A DNA stretch of 64,000 nt from NCBI GenBank assembly GCA_963826785.1, contig CAWGYD010000006.1:544001-608000 (forward strand). Direction: 5' to 3'. This stretch comes from an uncultured delta proteobacterium. Lineage in GTDB: Bacteria > Desulfobacterota > Desulfobacteria > Desulfobacterales > Desulfosalsimonadaceae. A program made the position numbers and the translations under genes. The notes beneath the pieces were generated by a model that saw only the letters and a program-made list of their open reading frames with translations, did not search any database and had not been told where the DNA came from. Shown piece after piece: positions 47,475 to 56,162 of the stretch. The stretch's first letter is position 1, and each line of letters opens with the position of its first letter.

Positions 47475-48916
<1,442 letters not shown>

Positions 48917-48920
<4 letters not shown>

Positions 48921-51487
48921 CCTATACCGTTTTCCTGCCGCCGGGCAGGCAATTGAATATTAAATTCCGTGTATTCTCCGATTTCCGTTTCCACGGTCAG
49001 TTCGCCCCCGTGATCCTTGATGATGCCGTAGCTCACGGACAGGCCCAGGCCGGTTCCCTCTCCAGTCTGCTTGGTGCTGAAGAAGGGATCGAATATTTTG
49101 CCGATGATCTCCGGCGCAATTCCCGATCCGTTGTCCCGGATGGCGATCTCGATGACAGACCGGTTTTTGTCGAAGCGGGTGCACACCCGCACCTGCCCGG
49201 GAGGCTCAACAATGGCCTGGTTGGCATTCATGAGCAGGTTTAAGAAAACCTGTTTCATTTTATCCACATCCATGGAGAGGACCGGCAGGTTTTGGTCGAG
49301 CTCGGTTTCGATCTCCGTTCCGCTCTTCTGGAATTGATGCCTTAGCATCTCGATGACTTCGGACAGGGCCGTGTTGATGTTGGCGGGCTGGGACCGGGTT
49401 TTCCGGCGCCTGGAAAAATTGAGCAGATCGGAAACGATGCGCCGGCAGTTTCCGGCCTGCTTTTCCACGATTTCAATGTCCTGAACGGCCTGTTCGTCGC
49501 CTTTGATCTGCCGTTTGAGCAGGTCCGTGTAACACAGGATGATGCCCATGGGATTGTTGATTTCATGGGCAACGCCCGCGGCCAGCTGACCCAGGGCAGC
49601 CATTTTTTCCGTCTGCTGGATGCGGTTCTCCACCTGTTTTTCCAGGGTGATGTCCCTTGCGTAGCGCAGGATTCCCCATATTTTATCGGCTTCATCGAGT
49701 ATGGGATAATAATAGACCATGAATATTTCGCCGGAAGCGGTGGTGATTTCTTCCTTGGCCGGTTGATGCGTGGACATGGCCTGGGAAAGCTGCCTTCCGG
49801 CCAGGGGCCATTCGCAGCCGTTTTCCAGTGGCCGGCATTTCTGGTTCAGCGCCTCCTCCAGGGTGATTGAGTGCCGTTTCAGATAGGCGCGGTTGGCCAT
49901 GCGGATGTCGAGATCGGGGCTCAGCAGGACCATCATGTCCGGTATGCCGTCAAACACGCTCTGGAGAAGCTCCTTGCTCTGCAGAAGCGCGGCAAAGTTG
50001 TTCAAGCTGTCAATGGTGATGCCGATCTGCTGGCCGATGGACATGAGCAGGGACTGCATTTCCGAAGACCGGTCTTTCAGGTCGATGCCCACGAAGGTCA
50101 TCACCCCCAGCACCCGTTCCCGGCAGACCAGGGGCACATTGAGACAGGTCTGGTTCTGCATGCAGGCAAAGTGGCTCATTTCCCCGTGTGCCGCCGTCCA
50201 GATGGATTCCTTCAAAGTGGAGGGCACCTGCCCGGATGCGGGCCTGTCCCCGGCTTTTATGGTGGGTGAAAGCTTATCGGCATTGCGCTGGTATTCCATG
50301 GCCAGGGCCGGGTTGTTCTTATCGCCGGAAAAGAGGTAGATGGCGGCCCCCCTGGCCGGAATGAGCGACAGGGTCTGCTCCAGCACCCCCGGAAAGATGT
50401 CCGTCAGGCGAAAGGAGCGTGTGGTGAGTTCGGCAATGCGGTTCAAGGTCAGCAGTTCCAGATCCCGGGCAGCCACTTTTTCTTTCAGCCGGGCGCGTGA
50501 AGATTCCAGGTCCCGGGTCCGATTATTGACGCGGACCTCCAGGTCCTCGGCATATCGGACCAGGTCCCGGCGGGCTTTTTGAAGATGGGCGGTCAGTTCC
50601 CGGGCGGCTTCGGACAGTTCGTGAATTTCATTCTTGCTGGAGGCTTCGGTTAAAAGCGCGATCTCCCGGTCATCCATCAACCCCCGCCGGAATATCCCCA
50701 GAAGGTCACGCAGGCTGTGAACCACCATGCGGTTGAACAAAAAACTGATGAGAACGTACATGAATATCAACATGACCAGCGTGGCACAGAAGACGGAAAA
50801 AGCCTTGCCTCGAATTTTGGCCAGCGCATCCTGGACGGGAATGCTCACCACGGTGATCCCGGCCAGCTGGTTTTCCCGGTAGCCGAACCCGCGTTTATCG
50901 CCGTACATCCTGATCAGCGACGGGGGCGCATCTTCGGGCCTTCCGTGGCAGTTCAGACACGAAGCGGTCATGAACACCGGCTGGGCATCCAGAAATCCAC
51001 TCGTGCCGCCGATCTCCCGTATGCCCTGCCAGTGCTTTTCCAGGGGATGTTTTTGGAAATATTCGATCATCTCCCGTTCCACGGGCGTGGGCGCCGATAC
51101 CGGGTTGCGGGCTTTTAAGGCCACCCTGCGGTACCGGTACATGGGCATGGATTCGTGAAATTTGTCCATTACCGCCCGGGATACGAAAGAGGTGGACATG
51201 GCTTCCATGATAAACGCATCCCGGCCGACCACTTCATACATCTTCGGACGCAGAATGCCCTGCACATAGGCCTGGGTGGATTCCACCGCCGCCAGAACGA
51301 TACGGGATTTGTTTAAGGCCTCCTGCTCGATGTGGTTTTTTTCGTGTGCATAGATCAGCCAGGCGGTCAGTCCGCAGAACAGCAGAAAAATCGTTCCCAG
51401 GGCGATCTGGAACTGGACCTGCAGTCCGCTACGTCGCCGTCCGCCGCGCTTCGGGTGATGCCCGTCGGCATCCGCTTGTTCATTCAT
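48917..51487 (-). CDS. Sensor histidine kinase with periplasmic heme-c (DUF3365/Tll0287-like), GAF and PAS domains
   Basis: CLNCH between two TM helices; HEINNP, DNGSGI and FFSTK..GEGTGLGL. Start taken at MNEQ (uncertain). Confidence 0.88.
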
Positions 51488-51738
51488 GCAAATAAATCCG
51501 ATCTGAATTCCATTTTCACATTCATGCGCTGCCTGCGCCGCCGTCTCCCCTTTTGTTGTCCGGATATCATCTTGAATGCGAAATGGAATAAGAATATAGG
51601 CCAGTGCGATTAAAACCAGGTTCCTTAGCAAAAGATGTACCACATGAACAGAATAAATGATCAGGAGTGCCGGATAAAAGCCCGGCACGCGCAGGAAATC
51701 GAATTGATTTTGTTTTATCGAGGCGCCCTCTGGTGAAG

Positions 51739-51764
51739 ACAATGCCTCCATGAGGAGGCATTGT
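51739..51764. promoter_or_regulatory. Candidate upstream activator sequence
   Basis: Perfect inverted repeat ACAATGCCTCC-ATGA-GGAGGCATTGT about 105-130 bp upstream of the -24 box. Confidence 0.55.
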
Positions 51765-51868: not shown

Positions 51869-51884
51869 TGGCATGCCATTTGCT
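51869..51884 (+). promoter_or_regulatory. Sigma54 -24/-12 promoter
   Basis: TGGCATGCCATTTGCT (GG-N10-GC). Confidence 0.8.
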
Positions 51885-51988
51885 ATCCCTTGCTGATCTG
51901 TAACCAGAATGCAACGGACATGTCAATCCGCATGCCCGGCTTTATTGACACAACAGATGTTAAAAAATTTGTACATCAGGAGGATCAG

Positions 51989-53419
51989 ATGACATTGAAA
52001 AAGAGAACAAGTGACACGGATTATTGCGAAACCGTGCAGTGCGCCGAGGAAGCGCCGGCAACACCGTCCCGCATGGGATGGAAGGAGCTGTACCTCAAGG
52101 AGGACTGGTGGGCCATCTGGCTGGGAATGGGGATTGTCCTTGCCGCCTATCTGTTTTTCGCGGGCGGTTCCAGCATGAAGTGGATCGCCATCTCCCCGGC
52201 AAAATGGTCCACCCTGGGGGAACTGGGCGGTCATTTCGCCACCCATATCACACAATACATCGCCCAGTTTATCCTGTGGGGGGTGATTTTTACGGTCAGC
52301 CTGAAGACACTGGGATTCAAACTCTCCGAGTTTCTGCCCTCCTTTGTCTTCATCTACTTGTTTTCGGTGCTCATTTTTTCCATCGGCGCCTGGGACCAGG
52401 CCCATCATTACAACCTGGAGCCGCCGCTGGTGGCGCTGGCCCTGGGCATGCTCATCTCGAACCTGATCGGGCTGCCCAAGTGGATGGACGCCGGTTTCCG
52501 GGTCGAATATTACGTCAAGACCGGTATCGTGCTGCTGGGCGCGACGCTACCCTTCACCCTGGTCATGTGGGCCGGGCCCATCGCCATTTTTCAGGCCTCC
52601 ATCGTTTCCATCTCCACCTTCATGGTGATCTTCTTTATCGGAAAGAAACTCGGTCTGGACAGGCGGCTGTGCGCGGTGCTGGGCGCCGGCGGGGCGGTCT
52701 GCGGGGTCTCGGGATCGATTGCCATCGCCGGTGCGGTGGGCGCGAAAAAAGAGCATGCCCCCATCGCCATCACCATGGTGATTCTGTGGGCCATCGTCAT
52801 GATTTTCTTTTTGCCGCTCGTTTCGCGTGTCCTTCACCTGCACACCGGGGTCGTGGGGGCGTGGGTCGGTACGTCCGAATTCGCCGATGCCGCCGGTTTT
52901 GCAGCCGCCCAGGCCTATGGAAACCTGGCCGGCAAGGTCCCGGGCATCCATGGAACGCCCGATTCCGCCGTATGGGCATTCACCCTGATGAAGGTGGTGG
53001 GGCGCGACATCTGGATCGGCATCTGGGCCTTTGTCCTGGCCATCATCGCCACCACCAAATGGGAAACCAAGGCGGGATCGAAGCCGCAGGCCGCGGAAAT
53101 CTGGTGGCGCTTTCCCAAATTCGTGATCGGGTTCGCCCTGGCCTCCATCTTCATCACTGCGGTGGCCAGCCAGTATTCCTTCAGCGATTACAACGACATC
53201 ATCAAGCCCATGCTGGTGGCCCCCATCAAGACCCTGCGGACCTGGGCCTTTATCTTCTGCTTCTTCAGCATCGGCCTGACCACGCGGTTCCGCGAACTCG
53301 CCAGCACGGGCTCCAAGCCCTTCCTGGCATTCACCGGCGGGGTGGTCGTCAACGTGGTCATCGGGTTTATCCTGTCGGCCATCGTATTCAGCACCTACTG
53401 GATCAATCTGGCGCGATAA
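51989..53419 (+). CDS. YeiH / putative sulfate exporter (PSE) family transporter
   Basis: EDWWAIWLG, EYYVKTGIVLLG, AVCGVSGSIA, GAWVGTS and WWRFPKFV; AGGAGG RBS. Confidence 0.85.
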   Translation: MTLKKRTSDTDYCETVQCAEEAPATPSRMGWKELYLKEDWWAIWLGMGIVLAAYLFFAGGSSMKWIAISPAKWSTLGELGGHFATHITQYIAQFILWGVIFTVSLKTLGFKLSEFLPSFVFIYLFSVLIFSIGAWDQAHHYNLEPPLVALALGMLISNLIGLPKWMDAGFRVEYYVKTGIVLLGATLPFTLVMWAGPIAIFQASIVSISTFMVIFFIGKKLGLDRRLCAVLGAGGAVCGVSGSIAIAGAVGAKKEHAPIAITMVILWAIVMIFFLPLVSRVLHLHTGVVGAWVGTSEFADAAGFAAAQAYGNLAGKVPGIHGTPDSAVWAFTLMKVVGRDIWIGIWAFVLAIIATTKWETKAGSKPQAAEIWWRFPKFVIGFALASIFITAVASQYSFSDYNDIIKPMLVAPIKTLRTWAFIFCFFSIGLTTRFRELASTGSKPFLAFTGGVVVNVVIGFILSAIVFSTYWINLAR

Positions 53420-53540: not shown

Positions 53541-53768
53541 ATGGGCCGCAAGGCAAGCGATCAAAGTTGCTTACACTGCAAGCATTTCCGGAATTCCCCG
53601 AAGTTCCTGGAGTCGGTTTTCAAAGGGCTGACCGCCCTGAGTTCCGCCTATGGGTCCGTCCGGTGCCAGGACGGGATTTGCCTGCTCAATGACCTGTACC
53701 TAGCCGCAAACCGATGCTGCGATCAGTTTGAGTCGGGTTCACCGGCAGCCGGGAGGCTGAACGAATAA
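53541..53768 (+). CDS. Small Cys-rich protein (75 aa)
   Basis: AAGGAG RBS; CLHCKHF...GIC...CCDQF. Confidence 0.7.
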   Translation: MGRKASDQSCLHCKHFRNSPKFLESVFKGLTALSSAYGSVRCQDGICLLNDLYLAANRCCDQFESGSPAAGRLNE

Positions 53769-53931
53769 CCGGAACGGGTGCGAACAGGTGCTTCATTCAG
53801 GAGGCACTGCCACCTTGTGGATACATGATGTGCAGCGATACCACACTCCGGTCCGCAGGAGATTAACCAGTATCATTTTGGGTGGAAGACACACCCTGTC
53901 GATAATTTAAATCCAATGTAAGGAGGATCAG

Positions 53932-54795
53932 ATGAGTTATCCGGAAGAACCCAAAGGGAAGTTGATCCTTCCCAGGCGCTCATTTTTCAGAAGTGCCGGC
54001 ACGTTCATGGCCGGCGCGGCCATGACGGCCGCGGGCTGCTCCGCTTTGATGACGAAAAAGCAGGACAAAGACGCCCAGGCGGCTGCAGCCACCTGGCCCC
54101 TGCCGTACAAAACACTCGATGTGGAAGATGTTCGCGGCCGGGCACATGCCGGCTATTACAAAGGCAAGTGAGGCTACGGAGCCTTTAGCGCGCTGGTCAG
54201 CGCGCTTGCAGAAGAAGTCGGTCATCCATACAACGTCATTCCTTATGAAACCATGTCATTTCTCACCGGAGGCGGTTTCGGGTGGACCGGGACCTGCGGA
54301 TCGATCATTGCGTCGAGCGCTGTGGTCAATATGGTGACCCCGATGGATGATGCCAAGAAGATCATCGGTGAAATTTACGCCTGGTATGAACAAACACCGT
54401 TTCCGTCCGACATGGCCAACCAGTTGGCGCACAACAGGCAGTTTCAGGTGAAAAAATACAAGTCATCCGATATTCTGGTCCAGACAGTCGCGAATTCTCC
54501 CCTGTGCCATATATCCGTAACCCGGTGGTGCAAGGCATCCGGGTATGCTTCCAAATCCCCGCAACGATCTGAACGGTGTGCCCGTCTGACCTCGGATGTG
54601 GTCGCCTTCACCGCAACCAAGCTCAACAGCTATTTCGCCCAAACCTATAAGAGTGAATACGCCATGTCCGCCTCGGCCCAGGAATGCACCCAATGCCATG
54701 AATCCGGCAAGCCGTTTGAAACCGGCGGCTGGACCCGCGGCAAGATGCAGTGCGATACCTGCCATGATGTGGAACCGGATCATTTTGTGAAATAA
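53932..54795 (+). CDS. Selenocysteine-containing split-Soret-cytochrome-like (C-GCAxxG-C-C family) Tat lipoprotein, 287 aa
   Basis: ORFs 53932-54171 and 54253-54795 are in one frame with only the TGA at 54169-54171 between them. Motifs: RRSFF, AAGC, YKGK-U-GYGAF, GWTGTCG, CHISVTRWC, ERCARLT, CTQCH and CDTCH. Confidence 0.85.
54187..54206 (+). promoter_or_regulatory. Bacterial SECIS-like hairpin
   Basis: AGCGCGCT-GGTC-AGCGCGCT; the loop starts 24 nt after the UGA. Confidence 0.8.
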
Positions 54796-54890: not shown

Positions 54891-56162
54891 ATGAAAACAT
54901 TCACGAAAATACCGGCGGTGCTCTGTCTGGCGCTGTCGGCGGTATTCCTAACCGCCTGGCTGATGCCGGCACCGGCTGATGCGGCTTATGTCATCGAACA
55001 GAAACTGGGCAACTATGATGCCAAGGTCAAACTGTACGGCTTTTCCCAACTGGAAGGCCGATTCGGAGAGGGCTTTTCCATCCGTTCGGATAAAAGCGAT
55101 GACGGACTTCGGTTCACCGCCCAGCGGATCCGGCTGGGCACCAACTACTATTACGGCAACATGTTCGGCAAACTGTTTCTCGATTTCAATCAGCCCCATG
55201 ACAAGAAGGGCGGCGGCCTGCCGGAAATGATCAAGGATGCCTTCATCGGCTACCGGTTCAACAACGCGGCATTTGTCCGCCTGGGCATGATCAAGACGCC
55301 GGTGGGCATGATGTTCACCACCCCGGGCTGGAACCTGGATATCGTGGAGCGCAACAAGCTGGACAAGGGCCTGGTCCTGGAGCGGGACATGGGTGTACTG
55401 CTTTCAGGCCGTTATATCGGATTCGGCGGCGAGAATGAAAAGACCGACGGCACTGAAATGGGTCACGAGCATGTGGGATATGGTTTCGGCTACGACATCG
55501 GTGTCTTCAACCCGGCGGGCCGGAGTGCGGCGGTGAAGCGTCAGGAGGAATTAAAAACAAGCAAAACCACCTACAGCATCGAAGACGGTGAAATCATATC
55601 GACCACGGAGAAAATCGACAACACCGTCACCGGTGATGCGCTGGCCTATGCCGCCCGCATCCACTTCGATTATGGCGAACCGCTGCATTTCGAAGCGGGC
55701 TACGGGGTCAGCGAGGAAGCTGGCGGCCGGGGCACCGAAGATTACAGTGTTTTCTCCACCGGCATCGATTCTTTGATCACGCCCCAGTGGAATGTCAAAC
55801 TGGACTATACCCGGGGATGGAATATTCTCGGCGTTAAAGATGATGACCAGACCACGGTGACCGCCATGGTGGGATACATGATCAATCCCAAATTCGAGGT
55901 GGTGGCCAAGCATTATCAGTCCCATGCCGACCCGGCTGCCGGAGAGAAAAGCGATCTGGGGAACACTTATGTCGGCCTCAATTTCTTCCTGACCGACCTG
56001 GGCAAGCCCATGGCTGATTTCAGCCGCGGCGACCGGCGCAAACTGCAGAACAACCGCATCCAGGTGAACTATATTTTTGCCAGCGGCGATACGGATGACT
56101 GGACCGGGCATTGGGGATACACCGATGACGCCGTTGCGGTTCAGTGGCAGTACAAGTTCTGA
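54891..56162 (+). CDS. Outer-membrane beta-barrel porin (OprO/OprP-like anion porin)
   Basis: Signal peptide, IKDAFIGY, RLGMIKTP, RDMGV and the C-terminal beta signal QWQYKF. Confidence 0.8.
   Translation: MKTFTKIPAVLCLALSAVFLTAWLMPAPADAAYVIEQKLGNYDAKVKLYGFSQLEGRFGEGFSIRSDKSDDGLRFTAQRIRLGTNYYYGNMFGKLFLDFNQPHDKKGGGLPEMIKDAFIGYRFNNAAFVRLGMIKTPVGMMFTTPGWNLDIVERNKLDKGLVLERDMGVLLSGRYIGFGGENEKTDGTEMGHEHVGYGFGYDIGVFNPAGRSAAVKRQEELKTSKTTYSIEDGEIISTTEKIDNTVTGDALAYAARIHFDYGEPLHFEAGYGVSEEAGGRGTEDYSVFSTGIDSLITPQWNVKLDYTRGWNILGVKDDDQTTVTAMVGYMINPKFEVVAKHYQSHADPAAGEKSDLGNTYVGLNFFLTDLGKPMADFSRGDRRKLQNNRIQVNYIFASGDTDDWTGHWGYTDDAVAVQWQYKF

Follow-up and report, generated by a model that had tools for sequence, protein, structure and literature searches.

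The window analysed here, a 64,000-nucleotide (nt) stretch from an uncultured delta proteobacterium of the Desulfosalsimonadaceae (assembly GCA_963826785.1, contig CAWGYD010000006.1, positions 544,001 to 608,000), carries a split-Soret cytochrome c-like gene that is interrupted at codon 80 by an in-frame TGA (Table 1). Our comparison with related loci suggests that UGA80 is decoded as selenocysteine (Sec) via a downstream hairpin and that the gene very likely encodes an overlooked selenoprotein. As the best overall reading, we favor on balance a selenium-ligated iron-sulfur (Fe-S) center in a predicted Tat-exported, likely lipid-anchored split-Soret cytochrome with two hemes. Databases carry only a 180-amino-acid (aa) piece of this protein, an annotation that would be corrected accordingly.

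Codon 80 is a conserved cysteine position

The TGA is the sole internal stop of the frame and lies in the context YYKGK-*-GYGAF. The initial annotation, made from the sequence alone, had described it as the only stop within 287 codons, at the first conserved Cys of the C-GCAxxG-C-C / split-Soret family, followed by a perfect 8-bp stem with a GGUC loop starting 24 nt downstream, and had proposed Sec read-through in a di-heme protein, with Sec as a possible Fe-S ligand or catalytic residue. Re-translation agrees with this frame, the hairpin coordinates were reproduced, two CxxCH motifs are present in the translated sequence, and the homologue column is purely Cys/UGA.

Among 112 protein matches, Cys occupies column 80 in all 96 alignment rows that hold a residue there. 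Another 16 proteins start downstream of the column, and several of these are probably mis-called Sec genes. On the DNA level, the corresponding codon over 165 related loci, a count that includes the host locus and duplicates, is TGC (95), TGT (54) or TGA (16, of which 12 are distinct), and no other codon occurs. The TGA forms come from independent genomes and metagenomes, and the closest of the 11 other distinct sequences is 80% identical to the host gene. A phylum sample of 401 genomes, 41 of them with matches, added two more column-80 TGA forms (L253 and L254). In five of five comparisons, the proportion of nonsynonymous changes (pN) was smaller than that of synonymous changes (pS) both upstream and downstream of the TGA, indicating purifying selection on both sides.

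These data also bear on two simpler explanations. A sequencing error, a nonsense mutation or a boundary between two genes (79 aa and 180 aa) would fit the indel errors of the assembly and the gene callers, which list the downstream 180-aa piece alone (P0002). This explanation is refuted by conservation and retains hardly any probability: the same TGA and hairpin recur in the 11 other distinct sequences, M108 has no Shine-Dalgarno (SD) sequence, the 180-aa piece has no signal peptide, and the Cys orthologues P0003 and P0004 are single 287-aa proteins. A genome-wide use of TGA for Trp or Gly (code 4 or 25), for which nothing speaks beyond the open frame itself, is refuted even more firmly. TGA ends 717 of the 1,480 host frames of at least 400 codons and is the commonest ordinary stop, which excludes a genome-wide code change, and column 80 is never Trp or Gly.

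A conserved hairpin follows the TGA

The stem arms span 54187-54194 and 54199-54206, and the loop begins at the 24th base past the TGA (23-nt spacing). Published criteria for a bacterial Sec insertion sequence (SECIS) comprise a 3-9 nt loop, a 4-16 bp stem, G in the first two loop positions, a distance of 16-37 nt from the UGA and a minimum free energy of -7.5 or lower (PMC13188914). With its 4-nt GGUC loop, 8 bp, 23-nt spacing and -13.4 kcal/mol, the host hairpin agrees with all four published bSECIS criteria. In isolation, it has a z-score of -3.3, and 1 of 200 shuffles is equally good. Longer stretches including the TGA are unremarkable against shuffles (z -0.6 to -1.4), and folding energy by itself is therefore weak evidence. 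Across the whole genome and in any frame, an 8-bp hairpin of some kind whose loop starts with G follows 4,797 of 157,192 TGA triplets (3.1%), so the hairpin needs comparative support. An 8-bp hairpin with an RGUY loop follows only 18 TGA triplets (0.011%), a post hoc figure because the loop pattern was derived from the homologues.

This comparative support comes from the related loci. The hairpin occurs at an identical register in all 12 distinct TGA forms, with 7-8 of 8 pairs and an AGUU or GGUC loop, while such pairing at this register occurs in only 2 of 124 distinct Cys forms. Changes on both sides of the stem (compensatory changes) affect four of the eight pairs in 11 cells, a level reached by none of 500 shuffles and counted on kindred sequences in an overlapping protein-coding stretch; controls with a slid register are at most 51% paired. 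In L253 (strong hairpin) and L254 (weak hairpin), the GGUC loop lies one codon nearer to the TGA. We regard conservation, not folding energy, as the decisive evidence for the putative SECIS.

Selenocysteine machinery and the state of the assembly

Sec read-through, as the initial annotation had proposed, is strongly supported because the column holds only Cys or UGA, the SECIS covaries, purifying selection flanks the TGA, and Sec machinery is present in other TGA-bearing genomes: selB in seven of seven tested (G001, G010, G061-G063, G275, G386) and selA in four of five. In G001, one contig carries both selD and, about 5 kb away, the Sec-form gene (L028).

Several points weigh against this reading. 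Besides the kinship and coding overlap of the sequences used for covariation, reads were looked for over TGA80 and none cover the position. In the host assembly, selA (C3:45209-46668) is split over two frames near C3:45850, beside a short G run, and neither selB nor selD was found in it by profile hidden Markov models or by tblastn with relatives' proteins. The initial annotation had named a genome lacking selABCD as evidence against Sec. The selC part stands, as tRNA-Sec is intact, whereas the outcome for selA, selB and selD is formally the adverse one; we attribute it to an incomplete, indel-prone assembly.

Taken at face value, the broken selA and the missing selB and selD could mean that the strain has recently lost Sec decoding, that UGA80 now terminates and that the gene is a fresh relic, all the more as the relatives samples contain selB in 46 of 47 and selD in 32 of 33 high-quality genomes. 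We consider this improbable. The assembly is 87.8% complete, and genes that adjoin selB (tsaD, purM, mltG) or selD (gmk, yicC, rlmB, uvrA, pdxA) in relative G002 are likewise without a match in it, as is hom, another flanking gene of selB or selD in relatives. Of 90 orthologue queries, seven are spread over more than one frame in the host (~7%, given without a control genome), and six of these look like single indels, e.g., in purD and a penicillin-binding protein gene; the selA split is probably such an assembly indel. Six further in-frame TGA codons, each with a G-loop hairpin, lie at C4:350226, C8:41782, C6:660732, C1:61886, C1:514891 and C3:221128, and we take them to be the Sec sites of four MvhD/FlpD and two formate dehydrogenase-type genes. 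They are intact, as are tRNA-Sec and the host SECIS. The gene at C3:221128 appears to be frameshifted further on as well.

Taken together, the absence of adjoining housekeeping genes, the frameshifts elsewhere and the six further intact Sec codons make an assembly gap the likely cause, not a loss. A chromosomal segment with selB, selD, tsaD, gmk, purM, uvrA, pdxA, rlmB, yicC and hom appears to be unassembled. The case calls for caution, as real selenoproteins may be encoded in incomplete assemblies in which selB and selD are not found.

Protein architecture and a putative metal site

The translated protein matches PF09719 (C_GCAxxG_C_C) with 38.8 bits against a gathering cut-off of 27, with U80, C122, C192 and C216 at the four conserved Cys positions, and its fold matches split-Soret cytochrome c (PDB 1h21), which bears out the proposed family. 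The match to NF047622 (159.1 bits) lies below the 400-bit equivalog cut-off, making the protein a homologue and not an equivalog member. Its CxxCH motifs occupy residues 252-256 and 274-278. Split-Soret cytochrome c is a homodimer with stacked bis-His hemes, a split Soret band and a non-heme iron center.

All 113 protein alignment rows have His at position 193, and 10 of 10 full-length heme-less proteins lack H193; this distribution suggests a heme ligand. A one-heme subgroup (L241-L252, L262-L267) has the first CxxCH only and retains H193 and the four Cys.

The host genome encodes TatC. Of the 11 distinct Sec forms with a covered N-terminus, 8 retain C36, and the host lipobox is non-canonical at -3. 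Since c-type cytochromes normally cross the membrane unfolded, the predicted Tat signal would imply a further cofactor; heme-less relatives (form 2, described below) retain the Tat motif and the four Cys/Sec positions. In a subgroup with 370-aa matches (P0032-P0068), C-terminal PF18962/PF13860 domains of the type IX secretion sorting type suggest surface display.

We propose the following sequence of events. SelB, presumably encoded like SelD in the unassembled part of the genome, would bind the GGUC loop and deliver Sec-tRNA, a step that we hold to be highly probable. The folded N-terminal domain is then likely to be exported by Tat, after which Cys36 would be lipidated as an anchor and the hemes attached outside. 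With somewhat less assurance, judging from sequence conservation, we expect Sec80 to be one of four ligands, together with C122, C192 and C216, of a putative Fe-S center beside the heme. This center would be loaded in the cytoplasm, hence Tat, and H193 next to C192 would ligate a heme and thereby couple both. The Fe-S center would exchange electrons with the two hemes. Finally, and speculatively, the cytochrome might act on a sulfur oxyanion together with the porin and YeiH encoded beside it, controlled by the sigma-54 two-component pair.

The title of PDB entry 1h21 refers to 'a novel iron centre'. The four invariant Cys suit a cluster. On the other side of the balance, the identity of the 1h21 center is known here from this title only, and its description as Fe-S, possibly [2Fe-2S], is reportedly that of Abreu (2003).

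In the main rival reading, UGA80 is Sec as well but Sec80 acts as a free catalytic selenolate and not as a metal ligand, engaged in S-S or S-O chemistry or in a persulfide/perselenide relay with the other Cys, with the hemes as an electron wire. We rate this as possible but rather unlikely. A precedent is MccSep (MccSep/ExtKL of Geobacter sulfurreducens), a periplasmic c-type cytochrome with one Sec, and thus with selenium beside heme, whose catalytic role in polysulfide reduction was shown experimentally (PMC13510729). The observation of TGA at the first Cys only would fit a reactive nucleophile, and the sulfur-transport neighbors YeiH and YeeE, plus dsrAB, would fit such chemistry. However, Tat export, even in the heme-less form, suggests cytoplasmic loading of a cofactor, the four invariant Cys and the iron center reported for 1h21 favor a cluster, and the structure comparisons revealed no fold likeness to MccSep. 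MccSep/ExtKL also differs in having five hemes and a Cys-ligated active-site heme (PMC13510729), and no sequence or fold link to the host protein was found here. The favored ligand reading and the catalytic one can be compatible if selenium is a labile ligand.

Probable exchange of cysteine and selenocysteine

In quick trees of 71 of the 140 distinct proteins, the Sec label has to change four to five times, whether the SECIS-coded peptide is included or not. The Cys form L112 is nested in the host's Sec clade (clade support 100; own branch 87-94), and the Cys form L139 has kept the complete 8-bp stem, but its loop reads GAUC. This nesting and the leftover stem suggest reversion from Sec to Cys. 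The three SECIS registers may reflect several origins of Sec. Overall, SECIS-like hairpins persist, intact or decayed, in the Cys forms L139, L034 and L112, which are likely reversions from Sec. Genome G275 holds four paralogues, one with TGA. The natural Cys orthologue P0003/L112, at 59-60% identity, allows a clean comparison of Sec with Cys, and Sec singles out the residue swapped by evolution among the four, providing a direct handle on the role of split-Soret cytochromes.

Relation to known selenoproteins

The initial annotation had stated that Sec variants of the family are known. Indeed, reviews list two selenoprotein forms of C-GCAxxG-C-C (PMC13188914, PMC9312934), and NCBI names some family members '(seleno)protein'. 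Form 2, represented by WP_012158890.1 (PMC12013277), shares with the host protein Sec at the same aligned position, the Tat motif, a lipobox-like Cys and the N-terminal domain, at 30-36% identity. It differs in that CxxCH occurs in 0 of 11 loci, the protein ends where the host heme domain starts, H193 is absent, and the SECIS deviates from that of the host in sequence and register. Form 1 is a 'putative redox protein' of an Olavius symbiont, a deltaproteobacterium (PMC1976440). It belongs to the same Pfam family and is set beside the host protein by description alone. Compared with Ssc of Desulfovibrio desulfuricans ATCC 27774 (1h21; NF047622), the host protein has Sec at the first Cys and a lipobox-like Cys36, and it falls into a clade separate from the Desulfovibrio-like proteins.

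Sec at this exact site is thus already known from heme-less form 2, and what is added here is the two-heme split-Soret architecture with Sec, in a family whose Sec forms are listed as heme-less or undescribed. The literature searched, which left key subscription papers outside, yielded no description of a Sec-bearing two-heme form.

Gene neighborhood and possible substrate

The gene order is yeiH, a small Cys-rich open reading frame (ORF), the cytochrome gene and a porin gene, divergent from a sigma-54 two-component pair (Table 1). The two sigma-54-like motifs, scanned with the -24/-12 consensus, are the only matches in the window at up to one mismatch, and a similar motif lies at the same distance in L110.

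Table 1 Features of the cytochrome locus (positions in the window)
Feature	Position	Strand	Basis
Divergent two-component pair: histidine kinase (Tll0287-like sensor domain) and sigma-54 response regulator	47475..51751	-	
Second sigma-54-like promoter	51627-51642	-	motif match
Sigma-54 (-24/-12)-like promoter upstream of yeiH-like gene	51869..51884	+	motif match
YeiH/PSE-family transporter (PF03601)	51989..53419	+	Pfam; start inferred from SD, ORF listed from 51854
75-aa Cys-rich ORF (CxxC ... C ... CC)	53541..53768	+	no Pfam/NCBIfam family found
AAGGAGG, SD-like, 5' of ATG	53920..53926	+	sequence
Split-Soret cytochrome c-like gene, 287 codons + TAA, read through TGA80	53932..54795	+	PF09719 domain and two c-type heme motifs
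Predicted Tat signal, RRxF at residues 15-18, ending in lipobox-like T-A-A-G/C36	53932..54039	+	sequence by eye
In-frame TGA, likely Sec80, first of four invariant family Cys	54169..54171	+	codon-80 alignment
Bacterial SECIS-type hairpin, 8-bp stem, GGUC loop at 54195-54198	54187..54206	+	folding, homologue pairing, published consensus model
Putative metal site, other invariant residues: C122 (54295), C192-H193 (54505-54510), C216 (54577)	54295..54579	+	alignment
Two CxxCH heme motifs (54685-54699, 54751-54765) and conserved H284 (54781)	54685..54783	+	sequence, alignment
Predicted outer-membrane porin	54891..56162	+	weak Porin_O_P match

A porin gene, of one of two unrelated types, lies near eight of the nine members of the Desulfobacterota Sec clade; the locus of the ninth spans just 1 kb. 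YeiH is encoded near five of these nine loci, which are kin and not independent cases, versus 6 of 124 Cys loci. YeiH is a candidate sulfite exporter that is strongly induced by thiosulfate (PMC11582611). Tentatively, the porin/YeiH cassette hints at a role in sulfur-oxyanion conversion. Counting against such a role, the family neighborhoods are mixed: over 156 distinct loci, 69 of which have 2.5 kb on both sides, they include arsenic-resistance, dsrAB, cytochrome b, heme-maturation, MtrB and formate dehydrogenase-type/molybdopterin enzyme genes, and therefore no single substrate follows. Moreover, ssc mutants of D. alaskensis G20 show little phenotype (bioRxiv 005694). Because of these mixed neighborhoods and near-normal mutants, we treat the sulfur-oxyanion role as a lead.

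A wider version of this idea is doubtful. Split-Soret cytochromes in general would be periplasmic enzymes for sulfur oxyanions (sulfite, thiosulfate, polysulfide) and not passive carriers, with the Fe-S center wired to the stacked hemes by the Cys-His pair, and in the present clade ligated by selenium and fed by the porin and YeiH. As part of it, the repeated Cys/Sec swaps, with their three SECIS registers and leftover hairpins, would mark residue 80 as chemically decisive.

A further alternative is periplasmic detoxification, in which the Cys/Sec site would bind or reduce a metalloid such as As(III) or selenite. Within 3.5 kb of the 156 loci, we counted ArsR 13, ArsP 9, Acr3-type 7 and ArsC-type 3 times. 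Arsenic contexts occur at no TGA locus, and the Sec clade adjoins porin, YeiH and two-component genes instead, so that a metalloid function appears quite unlikely for the gene studied here.

Several minor observations concern the neighborhoods. A Cys-form gene lies within arsenic-resistance-type operons (ArsR, Acr3, ArsP, ArsC, small thioredoxins) at L270, L271, L065, L055, L084 and L144. dsrAB directly adjoins four Cys loci (L040, L058, L061, L123), three of them in Chloroflexota metagenome-assembled genomes, and yeiH is nearby in three of the four by cluster count and in all four by BLAST. For the 75-aa Cys-rich ORF, Atlas clusters of unnamed proteins score 0.94-0.95, and it adjoins only one other locus. 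The same GGAGGATCAG-ATG translation start is found on yeiH (51977-51991) and on the cytochrome gene (53920-53934).
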